In this document: piece by piece, positions 39,931 through 58,577 of the stretch
How positions within the stretch are numbered: position 1 is the stretch's first letter
Layout: each line of letters opens with the position of its first letter
Assembly: GCA_039028615.1 (NCBI GenBank)
Contig: JBCCHT010000032.1
Location: forward strand, 1-64,000
Direction of reading: 5' to 3'
From: Myxococcota bacterium
GTDB lineage: Bacteria > Myxococcota_A > Polyangia > Nannocystales > Nannocystaceae
DNA: 64,000 nucleotides
The notes under the pieces: generated by a model
Databases searched by the model: none
Seen by the model: only the letters and a program-made list of their open reading frames with translations
What the model was told of the DNA's origin: nothing
Program-made: the position numbers and the translations under genes

Positions 39931-40358
39931 TAAAAACCAGCTCTTCTCGGTCCGAATAACGTTGTTATCCGAACACCTACGCGGCCAATCGATGTTCTCC
40001 ATCGTTTTGTGCGGGGTGGGCCGAGGGCGATCGAAACTGAGGTTCGACGAACTCGAGGCCTTCCGGCGACGACCCATTGCCGATGGCATCGCCGTCGATG
40101 ACGGGCGGGTCCGGGCTCCGTGATCGATGTGGCGTCTGGTGGATCCGCGTGTCATTGAACCCGAGTCGACGCTCAATGGGTCGACATGAGACGAGGCCTG
40201 AATTGCGCAGCCCCCATCGCGCGTAGCCCTGGCTCGAATCTCGTGTGGTTAGTTCCCTGAGTCGTCGTCCCGACACTCGATCGCGACGCAATCCGATCGT
40301 CGCTCGTGCGTCTCCTTCACCATGTGCAAGCGGGTGCGAACGCTTGCCTCCAAGTCCC

Positions 40359-42371
40359 ATGAAGCTCTCTCGTCCCGCCCCCCTCGTTGCACTGTCTGCG
40401 TTGTCCGTTCTGGCTCCCGGTTGCGTGGACGTGACCGACATCGAGCCCGAGTTCATCGACGAGCCCGCCCACGAGCGTGACACCCAGACCGTGACCGAGG
40501 CCGACTACGCGGGTGCATGCCCGGATACGCGGTTCATCGCTCGCTCGATCAGCCCCAGCCACTGTCCCGAGATCGACGGATGGATCGCGAGGTCGCTGTT
40601 CGAGGAAGGCTCGCCGTGGCTGATGGCAGCGCCCTCGGCCGCGGTCTCCGACTCGGATGGACATCTGTGCCGCTACTCGTGGGACGAGGTGGTCGAGCTG
40701 GGGGAGGCGCATGACAACCTCGAGCTGGCCGCGACCGGCTTGGCCGCCACGGTCGATGACCCGGAGCCACCCGTCCCGCCCGTGTTGCACGACTACAGCT
40801 CCGACTGTGAGGTCGTACGGGGTCAGCGAGGCTCGGCCATCTCGGACGTCGTCGGTCCGGGGGTGCGTCAGGTCTTCCGCGATCAAATCGGCTGGGTCCC
40901 CGGGGTGGCGTTGCCGCCCGGGTCCTCACCCGTCGCCGTCGCCGTGGTCGACACGATGCCGACCAGCGAGCCCGACGACCCGCGTTCGGAGCACGGCGAG
41001 CTCATGGCCCGCATCATCGAAGACGTGGCGTGCTCGGGTGGATTTCCCTGCGACGTGTCCGTCAGTCGCATCCTGGGCTTGCCTCGCTACATCGCGGGCG
41101 AAGACCGAGATCGGGGCGGCTACGTGGGGAGCCACGGCGATCTGGCGGTGGGCATCGTGGAGTCGGTCGAGCGCTGGCGCCTCGGTCACCCCATCCCCGC
41201 CCTTCGTCCTCCGCTCATCATCAACCTGAGCGTGGGCTGGGAAGCTACGCTCTTCGGATCCGGCGAGACCGTCTCGACGGAAGCCGTCGAGATTGCCATG
41301 GAGTATGCCTCGTGCCACGGCGCCCTGCTGGTGGCGTCGGCCGGCAACTCCAACTCGGCGTGCCAAGCGGGCGCCATGGCTCCTGCGATGTGGGAGAACC
41401 GAGCGGCCCCGGACTCGGCTCGCTGTCAGGAGCTCGGGTTCCCGCCCAATAGCTGGAACTCCGGCTATCGCCCCTTGGTGCACGCGGTGGGCGGCTTGAC
41501 CTTCCAGGGCGAGGACATGCCGGGCACCCGCCCCGAGAGCATGCCGCGGATGGCCGCCCACTCGACCCATGCCTACGCGGGCAGTGCGGTGCTGAGTAGC
41601 TCGCTCACCGGGACCTCGGTCGGAGCGGCCGCGGTCACTGGAGCGGCTGCCTTGGTGTGGTCCTACGATCCTTCGCTGCAAGCCCACGAGGTCATGGAAC
41701 TCGTCTATGCGGGGAGCGCCGACTTGGGGCGCAATGCCGACCTGCACATCGCGGGCAACGGTGCAGACACCGTTCATCGGCTGGACGTCTGCGAGGTCCT
41801 GCAAAACCAGTGCTCGCAGGATGCCCTCTGCAGCGCGGCGGGGGTGAACCTCGGCTGCACGCCGCCGGCTCACCACGACATGGATGCGGTTGCGGATGCG
41901 GTCGCGAACATTCCCGTCGCCGATTCGTATGCGCCGGCCTTCGGTGCCGCCCTGGCGTGTGCACCCATCTGTGGCGTGCCCAGCGAGGCCTATAGCGAGA
42001 CGTCGACCGTCTGCAACGAGATCGAGCCCGATCCGGTGGTGTTGTTCGTCAACCCGCAGCCCAACCTGCCCACGTGCTCCAACTGCACGCTGACCGACGA
42101 TGATGCCGACGATGACGCCGAGGCGTGGCAGGTGCACGCCTCGCTCGACTCGTTCTACGACGGCGCGCCCATCGAGCGGGTCGTGGTGACGGTGACCAGC
42201 GACATCATGGAGCGCTTCGATTTCGGTGCCGTGCCGCTCAGCTCCGACCGCGTGACGGTGCTCGAGCTCGGTTCTTGGGTGGCGCCGCCCCATATCCGGG
42301 CGGCCGAGATCGACATGTACTTCACGGGAAAGGACGCGCCCGTCACGAACGACATCATCGTCAAGCAGTAG
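40359..42371 (+). CDS. S8 subtilisin-like serine protease lipoprotein
   Basis: Lipobox LAPGC; catalytic triad motifs VAVVDT, EHGELMA and GTSVGAAAVTGAAAL; INLSVG and VASAGN. Confidence 0.9.
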   Translation: MKLSRPAPLVALSALSVLAPGCVDVTDIEPEFIDEPAHERDTQTVTEADYAGACPDTRFIARSISPSHCPEIDGWIARSLFEEGSPWLMAAPSAAVSDSDGHLCRYSWDEVVELGEAHDNLELAATGLAATVDDPEPPVPPVLHDYSSDCEVVRGQRGSAISDVVGPGVRQVFRDQIGWVPGVALPPGSSPVAVAVVDTMPTSEPDDPRSEHGELMARIIEDVACSGGFPCDVSVSRILGLPRYIAGEDRDRGGYVGSHGDLAVGIVESVERWRLGHPIPALRPPLIINLSVGWEATLFGSGETVSTEAVEIAMEYASCHGALLVASAGNSNSACQAGAMAPAMWENRAAPDSARCQELGFPPNSWNSGYRPLVHAVGGLTFQGEDMPGTRPESMPRMAAHSTHAYAGSAVLSSSLTGTSVGAAAVTGAAALVWSYDPSLQAHEVMELVYAGSADLGRNADLHIAGNGADTVHRLDVCEVLQNQCSQDALCSAAGVNLGCTPPAHHDMDAVADAVANIPVADSYAPAFGAALACAPICGVPSEAYSETSTVCNEIEPDPVVLFVNPQPNLPTCSNCTLTDDDADDDAEAWQVHASLDSFYDGAPIERVVVTVTSDIMERFDFGAVPLSSDRVTVLELGSWVAPPHIRAAEIDMYFTGKDAPVTNDIIVKQ

Positions 42372-42374
42372 CGC

Positions 42375-45134
42375 TCAGGGAACGAGCACGTGCAGCGTCG
42401 CCCAGCTCGAGCTCGGAGCATCGACTCTGAGCTCGAGCTGTACCGCACGGAGGGCGGCCGCGAGATCGGCCTTCGGCTGTTGGGCGAGCTGCTCGGCGAT
42501 GCCCTCACCCACGCGCAGCGCGAGCTGATCGTCGAGGGTCCCGCTGGCGGCCAGCACCTCCTGGGCTCCGGCCAGTACGAAGGCTCGACCGAGGTTGACG
42601 CCGCCCGCCCACGCTCCCGCGCTATGGGACCCGGTATCGCAGCCCGCCAGGATCACCGCGGGGGGCACTCGGGACACGGCGAGTAGATCGATGACGCCCA
42701 GCTCACCGCCGTGTAGCAACAGGGCTGCATCCCACCCACCGGCTCCTCGATGTGCCCCGTGACCGGCGTAGTGCAGCAAGGCCGCGCTCTTCAGGCTCTC
42801 GAGGACGTTGGCTCGGGTCGCGCCCTCTCCATCGTGGCGGCCCACCTGCCAGCCCGCGCTCACCAGGGTCTGTTCGACGGCCCGGGCCTCGTTGCGGGCG
42901 GCGGGGAGGTTCTGCGAGGGGTCGGCCACGACGATGGCCCGGCGGGAGTCCACCGCGGCGGCGGGACGAGGCGGAAGGTCGAGGGCATGCACCAGCGGCG
43001 CAACGTCGAGCAAGGTCCGGTCGCCCACCCGAACCTTGGCCAAGGTCGGGTCTCGGTCGCGGCCGTCCGCCATGATGCGAATGCGCGTGGCGCCGTGCAG
43101 CGCCTCGGAGAAGGTCTCGAGAGTCTCGGGGGTCCAGCGGGTAGGCCCGGGGCTCGAGGGCAGCTGAGCCACCTCGACTCGACCGGCATCGTCGCCCACG
43201 AACGCCAAGCTCTGGTTTTGGTGCGAGAGGATGAGCAGCACTCGCTCGCCGCTCGGCACGGGAGGCAGTTGCTCGCAGCTCGGGGGCGGAGGCTCGAGCA
43301 GCAGGGTTCGCGTGGCCTCTTCGAAGGCCGCCGTCGCCTCGAGGTGTCGTTCGGATCGCCGGGCGCGACGGTTGATCTGCTGGGTCTCCGAGAGCGTCCA
43401 GTCCTCGCGAGCCTGGGCCTGGAGTTCGGCCCGGGTCTCGAGCAGGCCGAACGAGACCTGCTCCCATCGTGTTCGCTCCGCTGCGGGCAGACCCGCGATG
43501 CGGGCGGCGCGGTCCATTCTTCGCAGCGCCCGACGCCGGGCCATGCGTGCGCGGCACAAGGCCTCGGTCCGCTGCCCGCGGGCGACGAGGCGCTGCACCA
43601 GGCCCCACGCACTGGCCGACCGATCCCACAGGAAGTTCTCCGCGCCCACGCCCGTGCCCCCGGACGCCGAGGCCTCGTCGAGCAGGCCTTCGGCTGCTGC
43701 GTAGGCTTCGATGGCGGCTTCGTCGAGGCCGAGCCGGGTCAGCAGCGCGCCCCGGCGCACGGCCACGCTCCAGTCGAGGCCGAGCTCACCCGAGGGCGGG
43801 GTGCGAGCGAGCAGGGGAGGGGCCTGCTCCCAGCGCCCGGTGGCCAGCGCGACTTGGGCTCCGATCTCCGCGACCCAGGGCTCGAGCCACTGCGGCACGC
43901 CGTCGGCCCGCAGTTGCTGGTAGCGATCGTGAGCGTGCTCGAAGTCGCCTTCGACCAGCGCGGCGATGGCCAGGTTCACGCGCTGGTTCACCGCTTGCGT
44001 CGGATCGGGGCACTCGTGCTCGGACGCCTGCAGCGAGCGTTCGAAGGTCTCCCAGGGCACGTCCGCGGTGTGCCCCATCTGCACCATGCGCAGCTGGGCC
44101 CATCCCAGGTTGCCGAGCAAGCCACGTCGCATATGGCAGCGCAGGCGGGTGGAGTCGGCCAGGCGCATGCCTCGTTGCACGACGGCCATGGCCTCTTCGG
44201 TGCGTCCCAGCTCGCCGAGGAGCACCGCGTGTTGCTCGAGGGTCGTCGCCTGGTGGCTGAACATGCCCAGGCGGTCGGCTCGACGCTCCGCTTCGGCGAT
44301 CTGGGCCACCGCGGTGTGGAGGTCGCCCGTGGCGCTCAGCAGCAGCCCGCGATAGTACGGCGCCCAGGAGCGCGCCTCGGAGACCGTCTCGGTCAGCTGC
44401 TCGAGCCGCTCGATCCACTGCTGCGCCCGGTGCAGTGATTTGTCGAGGATGGCCCGGTAGGCGATCGCGGAGGCGATGTCGGCGAGGTCTCGATCGGCGC
44501 CCAAGGTTCGCGCGAGTGCGGCCGCCCGCTCGGCGGTCTTGGTGCCCTCGTCGACCGCCCCGGTGTTGTCGTGCAACCGCCTCAGGCGCTGGAGCACGGC
44601 CAGCCGAGCTTCGGGCTCGAGCGTCGGCAGGGCGTCGGTGAGCACCTGAATCTCTCGGTCGTATCCCTCCGCTTTGCCGAGCGCCTTCGCTTCACCCAAG
44701 ATCGGAGGCGCGCTGGTCCACTGCAGCGGGAGGGCGAAGGGCTCGGGCCACTGCGGGTCGATGCCCCCGAGCTGCACGACCGCGGTGTCGCTCGGGGGCC
44801 GAAGCACCACGTGTTGACCGCCGTCCACCGGCCGGGTCTGCAGTTCCAGGGGCTGCCCGTCCGCCGTGGCCTGCAAGGTCGCGGATGCGTCGGCATCGAT
44901 CCACAGGTTGAGGGTGGCGGTGCCCTTGCGACCCGCTCGCACGACACACTTCGGGCCCTGGCGCGAACGGCATCCGCGGACCTCGACCGTCGGTGTCTCG
45001 CCCAGGACGATCGTCGAGGGGCTCGCGGGCGCGGGAGGAGGCGGCGGCTCCTTCGAGCACGCGGCGACCACCAGGGCGACCAGCGGTGCCCCGAGCCGTC
45101 TGCGTTCAGCCGGATGGCGACGTGACCGTCGCAT
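42375..45134 (-). CDS. TPR-CHAT (caspase-like) protease with lipoprotein-like N-terminus
   Basis: LVVAAC lipobox, helical repeats, VVADPSQNLPAARNE, catalytic LHYAGHG and ILAGCDT, and AFVLAGA. Confidence 0.9.
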   Translation of the reverse strand: MRRSRRHPAERRRLGAPLVALVVAACSKEPPPPPAPASPSTIVLGETPTVEVRGCRSRQGPKCVVRAGRKGTATLNLWIDADASATLQATADGQPLELQTRPVDGGQHVVLRPPSDTAVVQLGGIDPQWPEPFALPLQWTSAPPILGEAKALGKAEGYDREIQVLTDALPTLEPEARLAVLQRLRRLHDNTGAVDEGTKTAERAAALARTLGADRDLADIASAIAYRAILDKSLHRAQQWIERLEQLTETVSEARSWAPYYRGLLLSATGDLHTAVAQIAEAERRADRLGMFSHQATTLEQHAVLLGELGRTEEAMAVVQRGMRLADSTRLRCHMRRGLLGNLGWAQLRMVQMGHTADVPWETFERSLQASEHECPDPTQAVNQRVNLAIAALVEGDFEHAHDRYQQLRADGVPQWLEPWVAEIGAQVALATGRWEQAPPLLARTPPSGELGLDWSVAVRRGALLTRLGLDEAAIEAYAAAEGLLDEASASGGTGVGAENFLWDRSASAWGLVQRLVARGQRTEALCRARMARRRALRRMDRAARIAGLPAAERTRWEQVSFGLLETRAELQAQAREDWTLSETQQINRRARRSERHLEATAAFEEATRTLLLEPPPPSCEQLPPVPSGERVLLILSHQNQSLAFVGDDAGRVEVAQLPSSPGPTRWTPETLETFSEALHGATRIRIMADGRDRDPTLAKVRVGDRTLLDVAPLVHALDLPPRPAAAVDSRRAIVVADPSQNLPAARNEARAVEQTLVSAGWQVGRHDGEGATRANVLESLKSAALLHYAGHGAHRGAGGWDAALLLHGGELGVIDLLAVSRVPPAVILAGCDTGSHSAGAWAGGVNLGRAFVLAGAQEVLAASGTLDDQLALRVGEGIAEQLAQQPKADLAAALRAVQLELRVDAPSSSWATLHVLVP

Positions 45135-45903
45135 GCACGCTGAGCGTACGCCACGCGGTGTCGTCGGGCGAACTCGGCAGCTGCTGCAACGACTCGGGGA
45201 GCGCGTCGGGGGGGCCGACCAACAGCTCGAGCGTCCATTCCCCGGGGGAGAGCGCAATGAAGCGATTGAGCGGCCCCTTCAGGTGGATACCGCCGTTGGC
45301 CGAGATCTCGACGCCCTGGGCCGGTCGTACCAGCTTCGCGGGCACGCCGTTGCGGCGCGCCACGACGACAACGGCGACCGTGTCCCGAAACGGCGTCTTC
45401 GGGGTCAGCACGAGATCGAGCGGGCCGTCGAACTGAAGCTCGATGCGCTGGCCGGGCTCGGGCTCGCCCGCGCGATCGGAGGCCTGGCCCGCGGCGAGGC
45501 GCGTGATGGAGTACGAGGGCAGCGACGCGACCAGGTCCCGTTCCGGGCTCGGCGAGCGCGGGCTGCCCCACCACAGCAGGAGCATGGCGGCGACGGCCAC
45601 CACGGCGACGACGACGGTGATCGCCGCTCCGCGACCACGGCTGGGCGACGGTGCGAGCGGGACCACGTTGTCCGACGTGTCGCTCGTAGCCTCGCCATCA
45701 TCGGTACCGGTATCGGCGTCGTTCGAAGCGTCGTCGTCCTCCGACGCATCGAGGCGCGCGAAGGCGCCATCCAGCACCGAGCCCCGCTCGTCACTCGACA
45801 AGAGGCGACTCAGCGCCTCGGGAGCATCGCCCCGGGACAGCTGGTCCTCTCGGTCTCGCAGGTCTTCGCCCAGCGCGTGCAAGATCTCGTCCTCCTCCGT
45901 CAT
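45106..45903 (-). CDS. Single-pass membrane protein, probable anti-sigma factor
   Basis: Acidic N-terminus, one TM helix (AITVVVAVVAVAAMLLLWW) and a beta-rich C-terminal domain; ATGA-coupled to the ECF sigma. Confidence 0.75.
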   Translation of the reverse strand: MTEEDEILHALGEDLRDREDQLSRGDAPEALSRLLSSDERGSVLDGAFARLDASEDDDASNDADTGTDDGEATSDTSDNVVPLAPSPSRGRGAAITVVVAVVAVAAMLLLWWGSPRSPSPERDLVASLPSYSITRLAAGQASDRAGEPEPGQRIELQFDGPLDLVLTPKTPFRDTVAVVVVARRNGVPAKLVRPAQGVEISANGGIHLKGPLNRFIALSPGEWTLELLVGPPDALPESLQQLPSSPDDTAWRTLSVHATVTSPSG

Positions 45904-46538
45904 CCCCCTACGGTCCCTCCTGCCTCGGCTCCCGTGGTCGAAGCGTTGGCGAGCCGTTGGCTCACGATGCGCGCCTGTTTGCGGGTGCGATAGCACCACG
46001 CGTTCACGGCCCCGCGCGACATCTCGAGTCGGCTGGCGACCTCCGTCGGCTCGAGTCCCTGCACGAACAGGAGATCGAATAGCTCCACGTCGCGTGGGCT
46101 CATTCGTGCGTGCAGAGCCTCGAAAATCTCACTGAGTCGGGCCCGGTCCTCGATTCGTTTGTCGAGGTCGCCATCGAGTTCCTCTTGGTACTCGAGCTCC
46201 CCTTCGCCCCATGGGTGCCCGCGGTGTCGATTGAGCACCCGGGCCACGCGACGCCGCGCCACCAGACGCACGAAGCTCTCCAGGCTTCGACCTCGCTGTG
46301 GGTCCCAGCGCCGGAGCTCTCGGGCGTCGTGTTCGAAGAGCGTGACCAGGACCTCCTGCACGAGGTCTTGCACGTCTTGTCGCGGGTCCCGGCCGCGGTC
46401 CTTGGCCGGCCGCAGCAGCGCGATGCCGACCTCCCGCGTGATCGCGTCGAGCAGTCGTTCGGCCAGGCGTCGTCGCGAGCTGGGTCGACCCGCCAGGGCG
46501 GCCTCGACCAGCTGGACGTCGTCGTGACGCGAACTCAT
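45900..46538 (-). CDS. ECF-type sigma-70 factor
   Basis: Region 2 DVQDLVQEVLVTLF...RRWDPQRGRSLESFV; region 4 EVASRLEMSRGAVNAWCYRTRK. Confidence 0.9.
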   Translation of the reverse strand: MSSRHDDVQLVEAALAGRPSSRRRLAERLLDAITREVGIALLRPAKDRGRDPRQDVQDLVQEVLVTLFEHDARELRRWDPQRGRSLESFVRLVARRRVARVLNRHRGHPWGEGELEYQEELDGDLDKRIEDRARLSEIFEALHARMSPRDVELFDLLFVQGLEPTEVASRLEMSRGAVNAWCYRTRKQARIVSQRLANASTTGAEAGGTVGG

Positions 46539-46824
46539 GACGCGGTGTTATCACAAGCCGCGGCTGCGCCCGGTCCGGTTCGATATCGACGCCGGCAAAT
46601 GCGGTTCGCGGCCCCCCGGCCCCGATACGCCCGGCGTGCGACCGCGGGGGCGGTCTCGGTCCGATGGGGCGGCCCCCGGGTGTCTGGTTCCTGCCGATTT
46701 GTTCCATCCCATGTGCCCGTTGTCGCTCGTCGCCCGGCCGATGACGGGCCGTATTTTTTTCGAGTGCAGGCGTCATCGATCGACGGGGCATGGCCAAGGG
46801 GTGGACAGAAAGGAACCCGTCATC

Positions 46825-47043
46825 ATGAAGCGTAAGAAGAACATCAAGCCGCAGCTCACTGCTACCCGAGGGCCCGCCACCGGCCTCGCCGAGATCGGCG
46901 AAGAAGAGTTGGCCGGCATCAGTGCCGGAAGTGGCTCCCACCATGTGCAGTGGTACGAGTGGTCGGTTTGGCGATTCAACGGCGGCCCGCAGGTTCCGGG
47001 ACAGGGTCCCGCTGCCCCCCACAACCCCAACACTCAGAGCTGA
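46825..47043 (+). CDS. Putative RiPP precursor peptide, 72 aa (hidden inside track ORF 46,537-47,043)
   Basis: RBS GAAAGGA at 46,808-46,814. Sequence MKRKKNIKPQLTATRGPATGLAEIGEEELAGISAG-SGSHHVQWYEWSVWRFNGGPQVPGQGPAAPHNPNTQS; EIGEEELAGISAG resembles the ELSxEELxxIxGG leader motif. Confidence 0.78.
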   Translation: MKRKKNIKPQLTATRGPATGLAEIGEEELAGISAGSGSHHVQWYEWSVWRFNGGPQVPGQGPAAPHNPNTQS

Positions 47044-47069
47044 GCTTCACCGCTGCTCGCCACGTTCGC

Positions 47070-47104
47070 CCCCCGGCCGCGAGGTTCGTCCTCGTGGTCG
47101 GGGG
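47070..47104 (+). other. GC-rich intergenic stem-loop between the precursor and its enzyme gene
   Basis: CCCCCGGCCGCGAGG-TTCGT-CCTCGTGGTCGGGGG forms a 15-bp stem with two G-U pairs; no immediate U-tract. Confidence 0.75.
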
Positions 47105-47134
47105 TCCACTCGGTCTGCCCTTTTTTGGAGCGAG

Positions 47135-49015
47135 ATGATGTCCGCGCAACGACCCACGCCCGACGAATTTTGGAACACGATCGTTCCCCGCCATGAACCC
47201 GCCGTCTGGCGCGGTGCCGTCTCCGACATGGAGATCGTGAAGCTCGCCCGCGATGGGGCCGACCCTCTGCTGGATCGGCTGTCGGCCACGTGTGGCGATC
47301 GCCGGGTTCATGTGACCGGGTGTCCGCCCAGCGCCGAGGGCAAGATGGGTTTTCACGAGACCTTGTGGCCCGACTGGTCGCGGCGGGGCTCGACCTTCGA
47401 TGCCTTCATCGCCGATCTTCGTACCGAGCGGGCGCAGCCCAGCGGTCACTGTGCCTACATGCAGTCGGCGCCCATCGGCTCCGCGCTGCCCGAGCTGCTG
47501 CCCCTGACCTCGATCTGGCTCGCCGACGAGCAGCGCATGCAGGCCGAGAGCCGACAGCTATGGATGGGCAGCGGCGGTCAGCGACTCGCCGTTCACCAGG
47601 ATTCGACCCACAGCATCATCTGCATGGTCTCGGGCCACAAGGAGTTCATCCTGTTTCCGCCCGACCAACATCGGAACCTCTACACCGCGCCGCAGGGGCG
47701 CCTGTTCGAGTGGCCGTGGCGCAGTCGCGTCGATCCGCGTCGGCCCGACCTCGAGCGCTACCCTCGGTTCGCCGATGCGTTGGCTGCCTCGCGGACGATT
47801 CGCATCGGCCCGGGCGACGTGTTGTTCTTGCCCGCATATTGGTGGCACTCGGTCGACTCGTTTGGGCTCAACATCATGTTCAACTCGCGGTGGCTCGACG
47901 TCGAAGCCTCGCGTCTCGACGACGTCACCGCGGCCTTTGCCCACGGGGTGGTGAGCGCCCGGACGCTGCCGCCGTCGTTGCAGGAGCGGCTCCGCTCCGA
48001 GATCTCGACGCATGCGCTCGGAGACGAGGTGGAGTCCGCCCTCGACGACCAAGAGCGGGCACCGTGGATCGATGCGCTGCGAGCCGGCACCGCCGTTCGA
48101 GCGTCCGCCTCCGCGCGGACGCTCGACTGGGACCGGGAACTCGAGCTCGGCCCCGACGTCGTGGCTACGATGGGGGAGGCAGGCGTCTGCCTGCGCAACG
48201 ACGATACCGGGGCCACGCGAACCCTGGACTGGGACTTCGCCCCCGTGCTCGAGCAGTTCGGCCGCCCACGAACGCCCGCAGATGCGCTCCGTGCTCTGCA
48301 AGAGCAGTTCGACGTCGACGCGGCGGTACTCGGTGAGCAGCTCGTCGAGCTGGTGGCGGGCGGAATCTTGGTGTGCACCGATCCGCGACAGCGTACCGAC
48401 GATGAAACCCGGCTGCGCGCGACGGTTGCCCATACCGTGCTCGCGGCCCGCGGACTGCCTCTCCATCACCGTCGAGCGCTGAGGTACGCGCTCGAGATCT
48501 TCGCGTTCTTGCGCGAGGGCGAGCCCTATCCCGAGACCGAGCCGGCCCACCGCGGGGTGCTCGGCGTGCCGATGCTCGATGCGAATCGGCGCTACCTCGA
48601 AGGCCTGGTCCGGGAGCGAGTGCAGCAGCGCTTCGGCGAAGAGCTCGTGCCGGACGACTCGTGGGAGACGCCATATCGACTGGACCACACGCGGTCGATG
48701 ACGGTGGGAGCGGGTGGGCTGGTGCTGGTCGGGACCTCGGAGCAGACGCTCCTGTTGCCGTGGCACGAGGTCGAAGTGCTGTCCGAATTCCGCGAACCGC
48801 GACGCCCCGCGGACGTCTTCGCCGAGATCGATGCGCAGTGGGACACGACGCAGGAGCAGTTTCGGGCGTTGGTGACCCGGTGGATCGCGTGGGGAGCCCT
48901 CGTGCCCGTGGAGCGGGCGGCGGAGGCGAACGGCGGCGGCTACTGCTGCAGGCAGACGACCGACCACTCCGCCGAGCAGTCGCTGCTGGCGCTGGGCAGG
49001 ATCCACTCCGCGTAG
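47135..49015 (+). CDS. JmjC/cupin-like 2OG-Fe(II) oxygenase fused to two PqqD/RRE-like winged-helix domains
   Basis: LWMGSGG, VHQD (HxD), GHKEFILFPP, IGPGDVLFLPAYWWHSV. Two C-terminal units (...VLEQFGRPRTPADALRAL...LVELVAGGILV and ...VLSEFREPRRPADVFAEI...VTRWIAWGALV). GGAG RBS. Confidence 0.85.
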   Translation: MMSAQRPTPDEFWNTIVPRHEPAVWRGAVSDMEIVKLARDGADPLLDRLSATCGDRRVHVTGCPPSAEGKMGFHETLWPDWSRRGSTFDAFIADLRTERAQPSGHCAYMQSAPIGSALPELLPLTSIWLADEQRMQAESRQLWMGSGGQRLAVHQDSTHSIICMVSGHKEFILFPPDQHRNLYTAPQGRLFEWPWRSRVDPRRPDLERYPRFADALAASRTIRIGPGDVLFLPAYWWHSVDSFGLNIMFNSRWLDVEASRLDDVTAAFAHGVVSARTLPPSLQERLRSEISTHALGDEVESALDDQERAPWIDALRAGTAVRASASARTLDWDRELELGPDVVATMGEAGVCLRNDDTGATRTLDWDFAPVLEQFGRPRTPADALRALQEQFDVDAAVLGEQLVELVAGGILVCTDPRQRTDDETRLRATVAHTVLAARGLPLHHRRALRYALEIFAFLREGEPYPETEPAHRGVLGVPMLDANRRYLEGLVRERVQQRFGEELVPDDSWETPYRLDHTRSMTVGAGGLVLVGTSEQTLLLPWHEVEVLSEFREPRRPADVFAEIDAQWDTTQEQFRALVTRWIAWGALVPVERAAEANGGGYCCRQTTDHSAEQSLLALGRIHSA

Positions 49016-50142
49016 ACGGTGGATCCGAAGGGCCGGGCCGCATACGCCGTGTCGGTCCAGCCATCGCAGGTCGTCTCTGCCGTCGCCATGCTGGTGGGCG
49101 AGTCGACGCCCGTCCAGAACGCGGTGGAGGGCGTGACGGTCCCGGTCGCATCGAACAGGACCGGGGCCTCGGCGATCAGCCACTGCGAGGGATCGCCCGC
49201 GGTGGAGATCACGGTGACGCCATCGGCCCGCACCCAGTCGCCGCCGTCGAGAGCGTGTCGCTCCCAGAGCGTCTCGCCGGGCTCCGCCATCAGGGCGAGG
49301 ACGGTGCCCTCCAACCCGGCGGCGTTGGCCTCGAGTGCACACAGGTCATCGGCGGCTTGGCGCCCCGCATCGGCGGTCAGCAATCCCGCCGTCGCGAAGA
49401 TGCGTCGCGCGTCGGCGGGCGGAGTGGGGGCGGGCTGCGGCGCATCGGCGTCGATCCCCAGGCACAACAGGTGGCCCGTGTTCGCGCAGGAGAACAGCAC
49501 GAAGTCGACCCAGTACCGGTCGCCGCCGTCGGTATAGCCCCCGCGTCCGCGAACCTTGCCGTCGGTGGATTGCCAGTTTTCGCAGTGCTCGGGCGCGACC
49601 AGGCCGCTACGCAGGCTCCCCGTGAACGCGCTCGCGACCCCGTTGCCGTTCACCAGCGTGCCGGACTCGGTGTACATCAGGGGATAGCTGATCTGTCCCG
49701 AGGTCAGCGCTTGGCGATCGGTCGCGAACACGCGGCCGTCGGTGCGGGTCCAGCCGTTGGCGGAGCCCAGCCGGGTCACGGCGTCGGCGGTGCTGTCGGA
49801 CAGGTACGCGACATAGCTCCCGGGGAGCCCGGCCTCCGATGCGCGGTCGTTGCAGATGGCATCCGCGGCCGCCAAACCCCCGAACGAAGGGTTGTGGGCG
49901 GTGGAGGTCACGAATGCCAGGTTCATCTCGACCACGGGCCCTCGCGCCGTCGATTCGTCGCCCGAGCCCCCGCTGCTGTCGGAGCCGCTCGTCTGCGAAC
50001 CCGTCGAGGTGCTCTCACCCGTGGTCGGTACATTCGCGTAGCTGGGGTCGATCTCGACGCAGCCGGTCGTGCTGCCCACGACCACGAAGGACGCCGCGGT
50101 CAGCCAGCCTCGGGCCACGCATCGCGGAGTTCGACATGCCAT
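48940..50142 (-). CDS. Lipoprotein with two DUF1554/endostatin-like domains (start uncertain)
   Basis: AFVTS...GGLAAADAICNDRASEAGLPGSYVAYLS and a second copy IFAT...AADDLCALEANAAGLEG. Confidence 0.8.
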   Translation of the reverse strand: MACRTPRCVARGWLTAASFVVVGSTTGCVEIDPSYANVPTTGESTSTGSQTSGSDSSGGSGDESTARGPVVEMNLAFVTSTAHNPSFGGLAAADAICNDRASEAGLPGSYVAYLSDSTADAVTRLGSANGWTRTDGRVFATDRQALTSGQISYPLMYTESGTLVNGNGVASAFTGSLRSGLVAPEHCENWQSTDGKVRGRGGYTDGGDRYWVDFVLFSCANTGHLLCLGIDADAPQPAPTPPADARRIFATAGLLTADAGRQAADDLCALEANAAGLEGTVLALMAEPGETLWERHALDGGDWVRADGVTVISTAGDPSQWLIAEAPVLFDATGTVTPSTAFWTGVDSPTSMATAETTCDGWTDTAYAARPFGSTVYAEWILPSASSDCSAEWSVVCLQQ

Positions 50143-50372
50143 CGTGAAGGTGTGCGTGCGGCGGGTCGTGACAACGACGAACCGCTGTACGCAGAGTACA
50201 CCGCAAAATCACTACGCATGCGTCGGGGATCCAACCCGGGCAACCCTCACGACGATCTCGTCATGCTCGCGACGTCGAGGTGGCCCACAATTGCACAAAC
50301 TTCATACGCGGCGTCAGCTTCGTTAGACCTCCGGGGAATCTCGGGCGCGACCTCGGACGAGCCGGCCCTCGA

Positions 50373-52540
<2,168 letters not shown>

Positions 52541-52544
<4 letters not shown>

Positions 52545-53425
52545 TGCGAGCCCGGGCCGGGAAGGCGTGGCTGGTCGCGGGGACACTGGCGATGGGCACC
52601 GTGCCGGGTGTCGTCCGTGCCGAGCCCGTGTCCGCCGTACCCGAAGCACCCGGCGACAGCGCCAGCCCACGAGGCACGGGCACGACGGTGGTGGTGCTCC
52701 CCGTGCGGCTGTCGGGTGAGCTGCCCCCCGGGACCGACGCCGAGGTTCGCGGGTTGCTCGAGACCAACCTGGCGCAGGAGGGCCTCGAGCTCACCGATGC
52801 GGATGCCGGGGTCGCGGCCGAGTGCGACGCGGCCTGCCGCAGCGCGACCGCGGGCCGCCTCTCCGCTGCGTTCCTCGTGCAGGCGGACGTCGTGGGCTCC
52901 GAGGACGAGTACTCGGTCACCGTGACGCTCTTCGACGGCACCACGGGGCAACCGCTGGCGCCCTTCGAAGCCGAGTGCTCCATCTGCGGCTTCGTCGAGG
53001 TCCGCGACATGGTGCGCCTGCGCGCGATGGATGCACGCGCCGAGATTGTCCGCCGCGCTCGTGAGATGGAGACGACGACCGAGGTGAAGCCGCCGCCTCC
53101 GGTCACCGATGAGCCCCGGCCTCGATCGCCGCTGCTGTCGGCGGGGTGGGCCTTGGTCGGGGCGGGAGCCGGCGCGACGCTCGGCGGCGTGGTGCTCATG
53201 TCGATGCACAAACAAAGTGCCGGTTGCGCCACCAACCCTCGCGGAGGGGAGTGCGTGCCGCTGCGCTACACCACGCTCCCGGCGGGCGCCGCGTTGCTCG
53301 GCGCTGGCGTGGCGGTGACGGTGGCCGGGGTCATCATGGTGCTTCGCGGGCGTCGCAAGTCGGCGCGACCGCCCTCCCAGGCACGCGTACGAAGCCACGG
53401 TGCCGGCCTGGCCTTGCGCTTCTGA
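52541..53425 (+). CDS. Exported hypothetical protein with two C-terminal hydrophobic helices
   Basis: Signal peptide ending VRA, CxxxC and CxxC motifs; ATGA-coupled to the kinase. Confidence 0.75.
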
Positions 53426-53486
53426 GCGGCACGGGTGCGCACCCTCGTGCGCGCAGGTGACGGGGTATCGTCGCCCCGAGTTCATC

Positions 53487-54908
53487 ATGTCCGAGACGCG
53501 TCGTCGCGATTTCTTGCGCTGGCTCGGGGCCGGGTCCGTCGGTCTCTCCCTGCCGGCCTGTGCTCCATCGAAGCCCTCCACCACCACCACCACTCCCGAA
53601 CCGGCTGCCGCTGCGCCTGCGACCCCGGTCGTGCCTGCACGCCGCGGCAAGAGTGTGGCCGGCTTGGTCGTGCCCAAGCTCGACACGGTTCGGGTCGGCT
53701 TGATCGGCCTGGGGCGCCGAGGCTCGGGTCACGTGATCCACATGTGCAACCTCGAGGGAGTGGAGGTCACCGCGCTGTGTGATCTTCGACCGGAGCCGCT
53801 GGCGCGATCGCAGCGAGAGGTGGTCGCGCGGGGCCGGCCCGAGCCCGCGACCTACGGCGGGAGCGAGGACGCCTATCTCGAGCTTCTCAAGCGTGATGAT
53901 GTCGATGTGGTCATCATCTCCACGCCCTGGCGTTTTCATGCGCCGATGGCCATCGATGCGATGCGCGCGGGCAAGCACGTGCTGCTCGAGGTGCCCGCCG
54001 CGTTGAGCGTGCAGGAGTGCTGGGACCTGGTCGATACCGCCGAGCAGACCCAGCTCAACTGCATGATGCTCGAGAACGTCTGCTACGGGCGCGACGAGCT
54101 GATGGTGCTCAACATGGTGCGCCAGGGGGTGTTCGGAGAGCTGCTGCACGGGGAAGCGGCCTATATCCACGAGCTGCGCTTCCAGATGCACGACCTCACC
54201 GAGGGCACGGGCTTTTGGCGCACGGGCTGGCACGCCGAGCGCAACGGCAACCTCTATCCCACGCACGGGCTGGGGCCCATCTCCCAGTACATGGGCATCA
54301 ACCGGGGCGATCGCTTCGACTATCTCAGCTCGTTCAGCTCCCCCGCCCGCGGGCGCCAGCGCTACGCCGAGGCCAACTTCCCGCCCGAGAATCAGCGCAA
54401 CCAGGTGCGCTACATCTGCGGGGACATCAACACCACCGTGATCAAGACCAACGGCGGGCGCACGATCATGGTGCAGCACGACACCACCACGCCGCGGCCC
54501 TACTCGCGCCACAACCTGATCCAGGGCACCAAGGGGGTGTTCGGGGGCTTCCCCAATCGCATCGCCATCGAGCGCCCCGAAGAAGGCAAAGACGCGAGCT
54601 ACCACCGCTGGGACGGGAACATGGAGCCCTGGTACCAGCAGTACGACCACCCGCTGTGGACGCGGATGGGGACCGAGGCCGAGCGCAACGGCGGCCACGG
54701 GGGCATGGATTTTCTGATGTTCTGGCGGACGATTTCCTGCCTGCGCAACGGCGAGCCGCTCGACCAAGACGTCTACGACGCCGCCGCGTGGTCGGTGCTG
54801 GTGCCGCTCACCGCCGAGTCCGTCGCCAATCGCAGCCGCTCGGTCGATGTCCCCGATTTCACCCGCGGGGAGTTCGTCGACCGGACCCCGCTGCCCGTCG
54901 TGCGCTGA
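53487..54908 (+). CDS. GH109/Gfo-Idh-MocA NAD-dependent glycosidase (alpha-N-acetylgalactosaminidase-like), Tat lipoprotein
   Basis: Tat signal RRRDFL with [47 protein letters not shown] and DVYDAAAWS. Confidence 0.93.
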
Positions 54909-54962
54909 TTTTTTCGGTCGAGTCGAGACCCATTGCCCAGCGTCGTGCGTTCAACGGCCCCC

Positions 54963-56351
54963 ATGTCGAGGTCGCTGCCCATCGTCTGTTCGTTGTTCGC
55001 ATCTGTGGCCGGCTGCGCCTCGACCTCGAGCCCTGCCCACGCCCCGGGGGCCGGCTCCGAATCCTCATCCGCGACGGAGGCCGAGTCCCCGCCGCCCGTG
55101 CTGCGCTGGCGGGCGATGTCGGCCGACGGCGCGCCCGTGGGGCGAGAGGACCACTCCGCGATCTGGACGGGGCAGGAGATGATCGTGTGGGGCGGCGAGA
55201 CCCGAGGCGGCGGCAACCAGCCGCTCGACAGCGGGGCGCGCTATGTCCCGGCGGAGGATCGCTGGGCGCCCATCTCCAGCGTCGGCGTGCCCGATCGCCG
55301 CAACGACCATACGGCGGTGTGGACGGGCACGGAGATGATCGTGTGGGGCGGCAACCAGCGCGACGAAGACTCGGAGCTGCTGGCCTCGGGCGGTCGCTAC
55401 GATCCGGCCCACGATCGCTGGACCCCCACCGCGGGTGGTCCTCTGTCTCCGCGCGACGATCCGACCGCGGTGTGGACGGGCACGGAGATGATCATCTGGG
55501 GCGGTCGAACCTTGGGCATGCAGCACGTGGGCTCGGGGGCTCGATACTCGCCGTACCGTGACGCCTGGGTGCTGACGAGCACGCAGGGCGCCCCGGAGCC
55601 TCGCGAGGACCACACGGCGGTGTGGACGGGCACGGAGATGATCGTGTGGGGAGGCTGGTCGGGGTACGACGACGATCGCCATCACCACGGCGACGGAGGC
55701 CGCTACGATCCCGAGACGGATACCTGGCGGACGATGTCCACCGTCGGCGCTCCCGAGCCCCGCGAAGACCATACGGCGGTGTGGACAGGCACGGAGATGA
55801 TCGTGTGGGGCGGCGTGGTGCATCGCTATGCCGAGCCCGAGCCGTCCGCCGAGGCTGCGAGCGAGCATGCCGACGAGGACGCCAGTGAAGACGCCGAGGC
55901 GCCCGAGGCCGCGGAGGCCATCGCCATCGAGCGCGTGGAGCCGGAGCTCGAAGACGCGCTCGACGATGCCGAAGAAGTCTCCTTCGAGTACGGCAAGGGC
56001 GGCCGCGGGCGGCTCGTCCAGCTCGGCAACGGTGCGGCCTACGACCCCGTCTCCGATACCTGGCGCCCCATCACCACGGTGGGTGCACCCGAGCCGCGCG
56101 AGGACCACGTGGCGGTTTGGCTGGGCGACGAGCTCCTCGTCTGGGGCGGCCGCCGGGGCACCGCAATGCTGGCCACGGGAGCGCTGTACGACCCGCGGCG
56201 GGATCGCTGGCGCCCGGTGAGCGCCGACGAGCCCCCGACCGCACGCTGGAACCACACCGCGGTGCTCGCGGGGGACCAGGTGATCATCTGGGGCGGATAC
56301 GCCGACGGCTACCCACAACGGGGCGCCCGCATCGTTCCGTCACGTCTCTAG
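54963..56351 (+). CDS. Kelch-repeat beta-propeller lipoprotein
   Basis: Lipobox VAGC; repeated REDHTAVWTGTEMIVWGG...GGRYDP units with an acidic insertion. Confidence 0.92.
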   Translation: MSRSLPIVCSLFASVAGCASTSSPAHAPGAGSESSSATEAESPPPVLRWRAMSADGAPVGREDHSAIWTGQEMIVWGGETRGGGNQPLDSGARYVPAEDRWAPISSVGVPDRRNDHTAVWTGTEMIVWGGNQRDEDSELLASGGRYDPAHDRWTPTAGGPLSPRDDPTAVWTGTEMIIWGGRTLGMQHVGSGARYSPYRDAWVLTSTQGAPEPREDHTAVWTGTEMIVWGGWSGYDDDRHHHGDGGRYDPETDTWRTMSTVGAPEPREDHTAVWTGTEMIVWGGVVHRYAEPEPSAEAASEHADEDASEDAEAPEAAEAIAIERVEPELEDALDDAEEVSFEYGKGGRGRLVQLGNGAAYDPVSDTWRPITTVGAPEPREDHVAVWLGDELLVWGGRRGTAMLATGALYDPRRDRWRPVSADEPPTARWNHTAVLAGDQVIIWGGYADGYPQRGARIVPSRL

Positions 56352-56914
56352 GGCTCGTAGCCGTCCCACTGGTGCAGGGCGAAGCCCTCTTGGCCGCAAG
56401 GATCTCGCACCACCGCCTGCAGGGCGCTGCTGCCCCAGTCGTCGAAGAACATGCGGATGCCGTACTCCTCGACGTTGCCGTCGACCATGCGCCAGGGCTG
56501 GTCGCCGCCCAGGACCAGTCGCTCGTCGAAGCCTCCGTCCTCGCAGGGGACGTCCTCGGGCAGGCACTCGTCGTCTTGGAAGTAGGTGAGGGTCACCTCG
56601 ACGCGGTCGTAGTGCGCGGGGTCGATGCCCCCGATGCGTAGCGCGATGAACGAGTGCCCTCCGCCGCCCTGCGGCCCCGAGTACTGCACGGGGCTTCCGG
56701 CCAGGGTCTGGAACTCGTCGGCGCCTTGGCCCAGGGTGACGTCGAGATCGCCCATCAGCTCGCAGGTGGGATCGAGCTCGAACTCGCTGGGATTCTCGCA
56801 GCCCTGACAGTCGGGCTCGGGCCCGAAGTTCTGCGGCTCGGACCCACCGAAGAGGAAGCAGTTGCATGCCATCAGGCACCCCAGCAGACCCAGGGAGTGG
56901 AGCGCGGCTCTCAT
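56348..56914 (-). CDS. Hypothetical lipoprotein
   Basis: Hydrophobic leader with Cys (LMAC); GPQGGG.H motif of a kind seen in myxobacterial lipoproteins. Confidence 0.72.
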   Translation of the reverse strand: MRAALHSLGLLGCLMACNCFLFGGSEPQNFGPEPDCQGCENPSEFELDPTCELMGDLDVTLGQGADEFQTLAGSPVQYSGPQGGGGHSFIALRIGGIDPAHYDRVEVTLTYFQDDECLPEDVPCEDGGFDERLVLGGDQPWRMVDGNVEEYGIRMFFDDWGSSALQAVVRDPCGQEGFALHQWDGYEP

Positions 56915-57155
56915 CTGTCCAGGTAGTGCCGCGACCGGGCGTTTCGATCGAGCGTGGGCCTAGAAAAAATCGCGCGGGGGAGCATCCTGCGCACCGTCGG
57001 GGTGGCAACTGTTCGAGCCACGCGGCTACTGCTTCCAGGGCGGTGCTCAGAGGCCGAAATCCGGCACTACGGGCCGAATTCTTGATGCGGTGAAGAGATG
57101 CGGGACATGTGGGTACTCCCCGTGCACCTTCGCTTCGCCTGTCGCGACTTCGCCG

Positions 57156-58577
57156 ATGACCACCTGCACGAACGACGCCTTGCTCACCCAGTCGCCCGCT
57201 CGGGCGTTGCGTGGACTCACAATCCCCGGGGTGCTCTCGCACCTGACCCTCATGGTCTTCGTGCTGGCCGACATGTACTTCGTGGGGCTGCTCGGTCCCG
57301 AGTCGCTCGCCGCGATGTCGTTCACGGTGCCGGTCGGGCTGTTCATCTTCACCGCCGCCGTCGGCCTGGGCTTCGGGGTCACCTCCAAGGTCTCCCACGC
57401 CTGGGGCAACGGCGACGCGACGCGGGCCCGCGGCCTGGCCACCGACGGGTTGCTCATGATGCTGGCCATCGTGGGCCTGATGTGCGGGCTGGGCCTGGCG
57501 ACGGTGGACCCGGTGTTCCGGGCGATGGGGGCGGGCGAGACCTCGCGCGTGCTCATCAGCGAGTACATGACGCCCTGGTACTTCGCGATGGTCGTGCTGG
57601 CGCTGCTCATCGCCGCCAATGCCATCCTGCGAGGAGCGGGGGACACCAAGACTCCGCTGCGCGTGTCGGCGCTGGCGGCCGGCCTGAACATCGCGCTCGA
57701 TCCTTGCTTGATGTTCGGCCTCGGCCCCTTCCCCGAGCTCGGCCTGGTGGGCGCGGTCCATGCCACGTTGATCTCGGCGGTGGTGGGCACCTCCTATGCC
57801 CTGTACGCGCTGTGCCTGCGCGACCGCCTGGTCAGCTCCGAGGGCTGGTCGGGTTCGCGGATGTTCGAGTCCTGGCGAGAGCTCATCGCGGTCGCCGTGC
57901 CCGGCATCGCCATCGCGGCCGTGCCCCCGCTGGGGCTGGCCATCGTGACCTCGTTGGTCGCCCGCGATGCGGAGACGAGCGTGGCCGCGTACGCGGTCGG
58001 CAGCCGCATCGAGGTGCTCGTGGTCGCGGTCCCGGCCGGGCTGTGCGACGCCCTGCTCGCCTACGTGGGTCAGAACGCGGGCGCGGGACGACTCGACCGG
58101 GTACGTGAGGGCATGCGCCACGCCATCGTCTGGGCAGCGGTGGCGGGCGTGGCCGTGTGTGCGCTGCTCGTTCCCTTGGCGCCGACCTTGGCCGCGTTGT
58201 TCACCGCCGAGCCCATCGTGCAGGCGGGCGTGGTGTCGTACTTGCGCATCATCTCAGTCAGCTATGCGCTGCTGGGCATCGCGATGATCGCAAGCCCCAT
58301 GTTCTTGGGGCTGCAGCGGCCGGGCATGGCCTTCGTGGTCGCCACGTTGCGGATGATCGTGCTGATGGTGCCCGCGGCGATCGTCGGGCTGCTCGTGGCG
58401 GGTCTGCCCGGGGTGCTGGTGGGCATCGCCATCGCCAACGTCGTGGGTGGGCTCTTCGCTTGGGCGATCTCGGCTCGGGCCTTGGGCTGGTTGCCCTCGG
58501 GTCGGGAAATGTGGGCGTTGCTCAAGGGCAGGTTCGCGTCGCGGCCGATGGCGACTGTTGCCAGGGTGAGGTCCTGA
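57156..58577 (+). CDS. MATE-family efflux transporter
   Basis: DMYFVGLLG, ILRGAGDTKTPL, NIALDPCLMFG, ELGLVGA and VGQNAGAG; about 12 TM helices. Confidence 0.95.
   Translation: MTTCTNDALLTQSPARALRGLTIPGVLSHLTLMVFVLADMYFVGLLGPESLAAMSFTVPVGLFIFTAAVGLGFGVTSKVSHAWGNGDATRARGLATDGLLMMLAIVGLMCGLGLATVDPVFRAMGAGETSRVLISEYMTPWYFAMVVLALLIAANAILRGAGDTKTPLRVSALAAGLNIALDPCLMFGLGPFPELGLVGAVHATLISAVVGTSYALYALCLRDRLVSSEGWSGSRMFESWRELIAVAVPGIAIAAVPPLGLAIVTSLVARDAETSVAAYAVGSRIEVLVVAVPAGLCDALLAYVGQNAGAGRLDRVREGMRHAIVWAAVAGVAVCALLVPLAPTLAALFTAEPIVQAGVVSYLRIISVSYALLGIAMIASPMFLGLQRPGMAFVVATLRMIVLMVPAAIVGLLVAGLPGVLVGIAIANVVGGLFAWAISARALGWLPSGREMWALLKGRFASRPMATVARVRS

Follow-up and report, generated by a model that had tools for sequence, protein, structure and literature searches.

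In a 64,000-nucleotide stretch of DNA from a Myxococcota bacterium (GenBank assembly GCA_039028615.1, contig JBCCHT010000032.1, positions 1 to 64,000 of the forward strand; hereafter the window), two adjacent plus-strand genes encode a 72-aa Trp-rich, precursor-like peptide (P0001) and a 626-aa enzyme (P0002) that joins a JmjC domain to two copies of a helical plus RiPP recognition element (RRE) module. We consider it likely that the pair is a minimal cassette of the RiPP type (peptides made by ribosomes and then modified post-translationally), in which the enzyme would carry out leader-guided, Fe(II)/2-oxoglutarate (2OG)-dependent hydroxylation of the peptide core. The two genes probably make up a small pathway, so far undescribed, for peptide hydroxylation by chemistry known from other pathways. 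The host genome spans 12.3 Mb at 96.7% completeness, and the pair lies on its contig C32. Features assigned to the locus were as follows.

46809..46814, plus strand: AAAGGA resembling a Shine-Dalgarno site, 10 nt upstream of the P0001 start codon, read from the sequence
46825..47043, plus strand: precursor-like open reading frame (ORF) P0001, 72 aa; GC of 0.63/0.54/0.76 at codon positions 1/2/3; a called gene from the same assembly in a public protein collection
46825..46929, plus strand: leader, aa 1-35, with basic start MKRKK, I24-x4-L29 motif and I-S-A-G end (Ala at −2); from alignment with 7 related precursors and cross-validation, cut site predicted
46930..46980, plus strand: putative core, aa 36-52, with His39, His40, Trp43, Tyr44, Trp46, Trp49 and Asn52; from sequence, boundaries predicted
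46981..47040, plus strand: tail, aa 53-72, Gly/Pro/Gln/Asn-rich, where relatives instead have a Gly/Tyr/Trp tail
47070..47104, plus strand: 15-bp hairpin between precursor and enzyme; region folding energy −47.4 kcal/mol (z = −3.34), reached by 1 of 200 shuffles
47135..49015, plus strand: enzyme P0002, 626 aa; start probably 47138; aa 595-626 unconserved and of low confidence
47159..47893, plus strand: JmjC/Cupin_8 domain, FIH/JMJD7/JMJD5-like, with His154, Asp156, His238 and Lys169; from Pfam, FIH alignment and Foldseek
47897..48382, plus strand: module 1, more diverged than module 2; three helices followed by RRE-fold unit 1 (48125-48379)
48392..48913, plus strand: module 2, three helices followed by RRE-fold unit 2 (48659-48910); from hhalign and VIA-align

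Residues 9 to 253 of P0002 matched Cupin_8 (PF13621) at 164.7 bits (cut-off 27.4; E = 5e-48). His154, Asp156, His238 and Lys169 aligned with FIH residues 199, 201, 279 and 214 (E = 4e-19), which we take to be the iron and 2OG ligands, and were conserved at 90% or more over 12 family sequences. The codons of His154 and His238 lie at 47,594 and 47,846, where a preliminary, sequence-only reading of the window had placed the HxD and distal histidines. FIH, JMJD7 and JMJD5 were the nearest solved proteins by both sequence and fold, with FIH (E = 6e-17) and JMJD7 heading the Foldseek matches of the domain. P0002 is thus predicted, from sequence and structural models, to be a JmjC Fe(II)/2OG oxygenase of the Cupin_8, FIH-like type with an intact triad. 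Assignment as a ribosomal oxygenase by profile was rejected, as JmjC_2 (PF08007) stayed below its cut-off (15.7 bits versus 22; E = 0.011); JmjC_2-type proteins numbered 0 among the 43 PDB sequences matched by a profile of the enzyme family. Public records start P0002 one codon later, at 47138.

Beyond the JmjC domain, the model of P0002 (mean predicted local distance difference test [pLDDT] score, 79) places three helices, an RRE-fold unit, three further helices and a second such unit. Both C-terminal units (aa ~331 to 415 and ~509 to 592) consisted of three strands and then three helices in two AlphaFold2 models (pLDDT mostly 66 to 92), and these elements fall where two winged-helix units had been proposed. 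The same order defines an RRE (PMC12710340). Foldseek and VIA-align gave an RRE fold for both units, in keeping with their earlier description as RRE-like, but "twin RRE-like domains" understates the architecture: the duplicated part is the whole helical plus RRE module of ~165 aa, not the RRE alone. The halves spanning aa 255 to 416 and 420 to 593 aligned in hhalign with a probability of 99.5 (E = 2.6e-21), and a profile of 12 single-module relatives gave 74 bits for module 2 against 32 + 11 bits for module 1.

Folded alone, the C-terminal part matched ThcOx, TbiB1, TigE, TfuB1, PqqD and MccB in the structure search; three ThcOx chains and TbiB1 made up the top 4 Foldseek matches, and 11 of the 13 top VIA-align rows were RiPP or nonribosomal peptide synthetase peptide-binding or RRE-type domains. 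Unit 1 aligned with TbiB1 at Z 8.9 (rmsd 2.8; 80 residues aligned) and unit 2 with TigE at Z 10.4 (rmsd 2.3; 82 aligned). The best Foldseek match of the C-terminal half was the cyanobactin oxidase ThcOx, which presumably carries two RRE-type clamps. Its first 202 residues span both units in VIA-align (PDB 5LQ4 and 8PZ5), although ThcOx differs in being a flavin mononucleotide oxidase of the cyanobactin pathway with no helical insert between the units. The PqqD profile was weak on P0002, where it fell in module 1 (14 bits; cut-off 23.4; E = 0.063), and passed with 23.6 bits on family member P0055. A co-fold of enzyme aa 1 to 595 with peptide aa 1 to 56 and Fe scored 0.02 against a mark of 0.32 and was counted neither way.

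The 72-aa ORF of the sequence-only reading was present as described, with leader, core and tail, and the enzyme ATG (47135) lies 91 nt past its stop, also as described. Double-glycine leaders carry hydrophobic residues at −12, −7 and −4 and an acidic residue at −9/−8, a pattern seen in P0001 as I24, L29, I32, E27 and E28. The consensus ELxxEELxxIxG(G/A) had been claimed for it; this does not fit, as I-S-A-G closes the leader and puts Ala at −2. In the alignment of related precursors, Trp46 and Trp49 fall in invariant Trp columns, and Trp is the sole invariant residue type of the aligned cores. The W-x-x-W-x-x-W spacing is real in P0001 but is not conserved, the relatives having W-x-W-W. The leader resembles, we assume, that of cyanobactin (PatE-type) precursors; assignment as a cyanobactin precursor was nevertheless rejected, as P0001 was absent from the 13 TIGR03678 matches in the genome (E up to 10), none of which exceeded the cut-off. 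P0001 matched no Pfam or NCBIfam precursor family, a PDB sequence search returned only chance antibody matches, and no further precursor copies were found in its own genome, where motif matches were shadow frames.

Evidence that such enzymes travel with such peptides came from related loci. In a quick tree of 57 rows, 8 two-module sequences formed one clade (SH-aLRT 100), 7 loci of which had DNA context. An adjacent, same-strand precursor of the double-Gly type was present in 5 of these, and the other 2 are cut by contig ends, L020 stopping inside the enzyme gene. The four related precursors (G063:C2, G064, G065 and L019) are encoded by ORFs of 81 to 87 aa downstream of the enzyme on the same strand, after a gap of 22 to 88 nt, and combine a basic start, a V-A-G-G leader end, the core REWGWWQ[IV]Q and a Gly/Tyr/Trp tail. 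Homologs had been expected to have conserved leader-bearing ORFs upstream; adjacency bore this out, but the relatives' ORFs lie downstream and their cores differ. The motif W-[QR]-[IVF]-[QN] was found in 5/5 enzyme-adjacent precursors versus 0/6 enzyme-less precursors of the family. When 92 JmjC loci were scanned with the leader profile, the two-module locus L019 was the only match; the 89 loci of other cupins, of which many were short contigs, gave none. Two profiles of relatives' precursors built without P0001 placed it 3rd and 7th to 8th when all 46,862 small ORFs in the genome were ranked; of 5000 shuffles, 0 and 1 reached its score.

The enzyme had been described as acting alone. It does stand alone here, but two of the four related precursor-bearing loci add a gene for a 232-aa protein, and all four abut a gene for an S9 oligopeptidase that converges on the cassette (L015:3430-5706, L016:5723-7966, L017:7273-9297 and L019:8236-9387), which could reflect tail trimming or plain synteny. 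A P-loop protein, sulfotransferase-like by eye and without a Pfam match, is divergent from the cassettes of genus g17 (L015:9683-10540, L017:3500-4357 and L020:4967-5809). Three homologs in the genome studied here (G000:C51:77898, C22:96802 and C44:57028) have no such precursor beside them, and the neighbor was therefore taken as synteny.

The 232-aa protein emerged from the same search as a second candidate, tied to an R[DE]WGW precursor. Eight of the 73 genomes of the order, from three genera, carry its gene (~232 aa), which was not found in the 96.7% complete genome studied here. The precursor family occurs without a JmjC enzyme in 6 loci, always preceding this gene, and an R[DE]WGW precursor lies upstream in 8/8 loci, with the motif at the very C terminus in two; these counts come from related genomes and are not independent. 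A double-Gly precursor precedes the gene at each locus (L134:8734-9429, L135:7478-8170, L136:7763-8464, L137:8578-9279, L015:5725-6432, L017:6574-7272, L165:1444-2181 and L166:1480-2220). The protein has 38 homologs in the protein collection, and searches of Pfam, PDB and Atlas gave no assignment. It is a candidate new RiPP maturase that may be a more novel enzyme than P0002. Because R[DE]WGW goes with the 232-aa gene and W-[QR]-[IVF]-[QN] with the JmjC enzyme, the pattern points to two maturases, each with its own motif, that co-occur in G064 and G065 but occur separately elsewhere. Two further peptides, P0163 and P0164, have other leaders and Cys-containing cores with the same Gly/Tyr/Trp-rich tail, which suggests a swappable follower; P0164 matches the class I lanthipeptide leader NF038153 (E = 7e-8).

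The pair had been proposed as a new RiPP class, which overstates the case, as an Fe/2OG hydroxylase with a C-terminal RRE and a Trp-rich core substrate (MppG) and JmjC RiPP hydroxylases are already characterized. MppG, from the mpp cluster of Moorena producens, performs leader-dependent β-hydroxylation of both Trp residues in a W-R-W core and needs an L(X)4L motif (2026 preprint, bioRxiv 10.64898/2026.10.04.756588). Compared by description only, MppG is like P0002 a nonheme Fe/2OG enzyme with an H-x-D...H triad (141/143/229 versus 154/156/238) and a C-terminal RRE, and its Trp-rich core likewise follows an L(X)4L leader (I-x4-L in P0001); it differs in having one RRE and a long Nif11 leader and in tailoring after lanthionine formation in a multi-enzyme cluster. 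CzlI (curacozole; PMC11575548) and BipG/PbsQ (biphenomycin; PMC12707348 and PMC12257519) are JmjC RiPP hydroxylases, JmjC/cupin Fe/2OG enzymes that, like P0002 as proposed, act on a precursor-peptide residue. They are, however, accessory enzymes in YcaO or multinuclear nonheme iron oxidase (MNIO)/radical SAM clusters, target Phe and ornithine, and have no RRE described in the text consulted. JmjC-RRE fusions in RiPP-like contexts have also been noted (PMC12710340).

The order JmjC, helical unit, winged helix is shared with MINA53, NO66 and YcfD (PMC6182338), although P0002 doubles the last two elements; those enzymes are single-module and have ribosomal-protein substrates, whereas the catalytic domain of P0002 is nearer FIH/JMJD7. 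Cupin_8 proteins of operons encoding a TonB receptor, SapC, a cupin and tryptophan halogenase are ~30% identical over the catalytic domain and first helical unit, but are ~340 aa long with no RRE and no such precursor annotated. Crocagin is a myxobacterial product. Its CgnC (PMC10070186) is, like P0002 as proposed, a RiPP Fe/2OG enzyme that oxidizes a Tyr/Trp core, but CgnC itself lacks precursor binding and needs the separate peptide-binding proteins CgnB/CgnE, and it has a linked protease. What is new here is the duplicated helical plus RRE module and the stand-alone enzyme-precursor pair; no account of a twin-module enzyme or a P0001-type precursor family was found in the literature searched, outside of which most subscription journals lay.

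In the mechanism we propose, peptide and enzyme would be co-transcribed, and the intergenic hairpin, a putative mRNA-stabilizing or partial-termination element, would keep the peptide in excess. One or both RRE units, whose fold is predicted, may bind the leader near I24-x4-L29 as an added β-strand and deliver the core to the Fe(II)/2OG site, where the JmjC domain would hydroxylate core side chains at +16 Da each. The second helical unit could form a pseudo-dimer within one chain, as homodimers of single-module relatives would. Leader removal and export would occur in trans, through a general protease or a C39 transporter, three of which are encoded at other sites in the genome. C39 peptidases require Gly at −2, and since P0001 has Ala there, C39 processing is uncertain. 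Within this mechanism, Trp Cβ is somewhat favored as the target, because Trp is the sole invariant core residue, MppG sets a precedent and tryptophan halogenases stand beside RRE-less relatives. A clearly less probable second choice, prompted by the likeness to FIH and the W-[QR]-[IVF]-[QN] covariation, is the Asn/Gln that follows the last Trp by three residues; His, Tyr or another residue is slightly less probable again. As two genes with a predicted +16 Da readout, the pair is a compact enzyme-substrate system. If the proposal holds, leader-guided Fe/2OG peptide hydroxylation extends to a stand-alone myxobacterial system in which the role of a second RRE module can be addressed, and the pair is relevant to the question of whether ribosomal oxygenases and RiPP hydroxylases share the JmjC-helix-winged-helix layout as one recurring design.

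Several observations weigh against this proposal. No protease or exporter is linked to the pair (all three PF03412 C39 peptidase genes of the genome lie elsewhere, one of them in a graspetide-like cluster), and Ala34 at −2 departs from the Gly-Gly of 13/13 related precursors. The P0001 core offset and tail are unlike those of the relatives. The genome-wide E values of P0001 with the two profiles above were only 0.56 and 6.4, and a profile of the relatives' five enzyme-type precursors missed it (score −1.0, reached by 1296 of 5000 shuffles; rank 18,535). Kinship between P0001 and the relatives' precursors is therefore statistically weak at the sequence level, although above chance by two profiles. 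The five paired loci amount to about two lineages, this genome and one genus, with opposite gene order, because L019 encodes the same precursor as G063:C2 and the rest belong to one genus. At G067:C16, the contig begins 111 nt upstream of the enzyme, where another ORF ends, and no precursor was found in 6.9 kb downstream. The winged helix of MINA53 scored Z 8.4 on unit 1 in VIA-align, tied with true RREs, so the fold is no proof of leader binding. Finally, MppG prefers an already cyclized core, with <10% turnover on linear substrate (bioRxiv 10.64898/2026.10.04.756588).

A more far-reaching version, which we regard as unlikely, would make the twin-RRE JmjC enzyme, as sole maturase, the mark of its own RiPP family, oxidizing and possibly crosslinking a Trp array; the wider precursor family would be modular in myxobacteria, the 232-aa R[DE]WGW maturase would be a new enzyme family, and leaders, cores and tails would be swapped between both enzymes.

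We think it quite unlikely that the pair is a tailoring fragment or relic of a larger pathway, in which the relatives' 232-aa protein would be the core maturase and the JmjC enzyme an add-on, the pair here being left over or dependent on an enzyme encoded elsewhere. The 6 JmjC-less precursor loci, always with the 232-aa gene, the R[DE]WGW precursor upstream of it in 8/8, the failure to find this gene here and the pre-modified substrate that MppG is described as needing would all fit. However, both genes are intact here with the hairpin between them; P0001 lacks R[DE]WGW and the Gly/Tyr tail, as expected if a 232-aa partner is no longer served; and at G063:C2 and L019, enzyme and precursor likewise lack an accompanying 232-aa gene, although G063 carries one at another site.

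It is improbable that P0002 instead crosslinks or desaturates the Trp/Tyr/His-rich core in −2 Da steps, making a product by itself. Its place as sole enzyme at the locus and three Trp residues at i, i+3 and i+6 would suit such chemistry, MppG products readily lose water (bioRxiv 10.64898/2026.10.04.756588), and, with the aid of two required helper proteins, the crocagin dioxygenase CgnC forms a ring system on Tyr-Trp (PMC10070186). Against this, the i+3 spacing gives way to W-x-W-W in relatives, the closest solved relatives are FIH, JMJD7 and JMJD5, and the JmjC RiPP enzymes compared (CzlI and BipG/PbsQ) all hydroxylate, as described. Equally improbable is a ribosomal-oxygenase-like hydroxylase whose winged helices bind another cellular protein, the small ORF being incidental or regulatory: MINA53, NO66 and YcfD combine JmjC, a helical dimerization motif and a winged helix (PMC6182338), MINA53 matches unit 1 and P0001 falls in no Pfam or NCBIfam precursor family, but the catalytic domain belongs to the FIH/Cupin_8 type (JmjC_2 reaches only E = 0.011), the enzyme is patchy (5/73 genomes; full-length in 0/5 of the same genus), unlike a housekeeping gene, and a leader-bearing peptide adjoins it in both gene orders.

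Relatives of P0002 were collected by HMMER-based searches. Of 73 genomes from the order, 4, all of one other genus, had full-length orthologs (38 to 45% identical), making two-module enzymes rare (5/73, this genome included); none was found in 5 same-genus genomes, and one ortholog is annotated as a Nannocystaceae bacterium protein. Among the best 150 of 1.84 billion representatives, 9 had two RRE-type units, 19 had one and 122 had none. The enzyme family accounted for 2 of 80 metagenome loci, and samples of the phylum and class (401 genomes each, 3 candidates scored per genome) contained no further full-length member. A word-based search with aa 250 to 600 returned only P0002 itself, a scan of the genome contigs found one distant cupin, and Atlas searches gave only leads under 0.9. 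RRE-less relatives adjoin tryptophan halogenase genes in 2 of 3 loci examined.

Other family members showed further arrangements. P0008 is a two-module member fused (aa 600 to 990) to a ~390-aa Pfam-less domain with an H-D-x-x-H motif, possibly a second metalloenzyme. JmjC relatives of ~430 aa share an operon with genes for an ABC transporter and glycosyltransferases (L021:2-4414 and L022:1-3072), a RiPP-like setting in which a precursor was not seen; L021 also holds the start of a gene resembling a B12-radical SAM protein by eye, a fragment without a Pfam match. L011, L013 and L014 (G049:C65:15676-26599) contain four or more JmjC genes, including a tandem run of three, close to an ABC-transporter-like gene and a small acidic ORF.

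Around the pair, a domain scan of 10 neighboring ORFs (40245 to 58577) found no radical SAM, LanM, YcaO, P450 or C39 transporter gene, nor any other known RiPP maturase, in agreement with the sequence-only reading. Other gene groups 4 to 8 kb away encode an S8 peptidase (40245) and a MATE transporter (57090). The AAAGGA motif, earlier called a strong ribosome-binding site, is present and rates as a fair Shine-Dalgarno site. The pair is flanked by a convergent DUF1554 gene and by a divergent group on the minus strand encoding an extracytoplasmic function sigma factor, an anti-sigma-like membrane protein and a tetratricopeptide repeat-CHAT protease, convergent with the S8 peptidase gene (40245 to 46538 in all). 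This sigma/anti-sigma/CHAT/S8 group was left out of the cassette, being divergent and not seen at related loci; the upstream region 46539 to 46824 is common to the sigma/CHAT group and the precursor. A same-genus DNA search matched the kinase region, and no match over the cassette stood among those listed. Elsewhere in the genome, the graspetide-like cluster (G000:C18:214226-218716) comprises genes for a C39 transporter and a membrane fusion protein, a gene judged ATP-grasp-like by eye and one for a 74-aa precursor in which the repeat TTLA[IL]GEE occurs four times. Positions 1 to 1000 of the window, at the contig end, have a GC content of 44.5%, compared with ~70% in the remainder.

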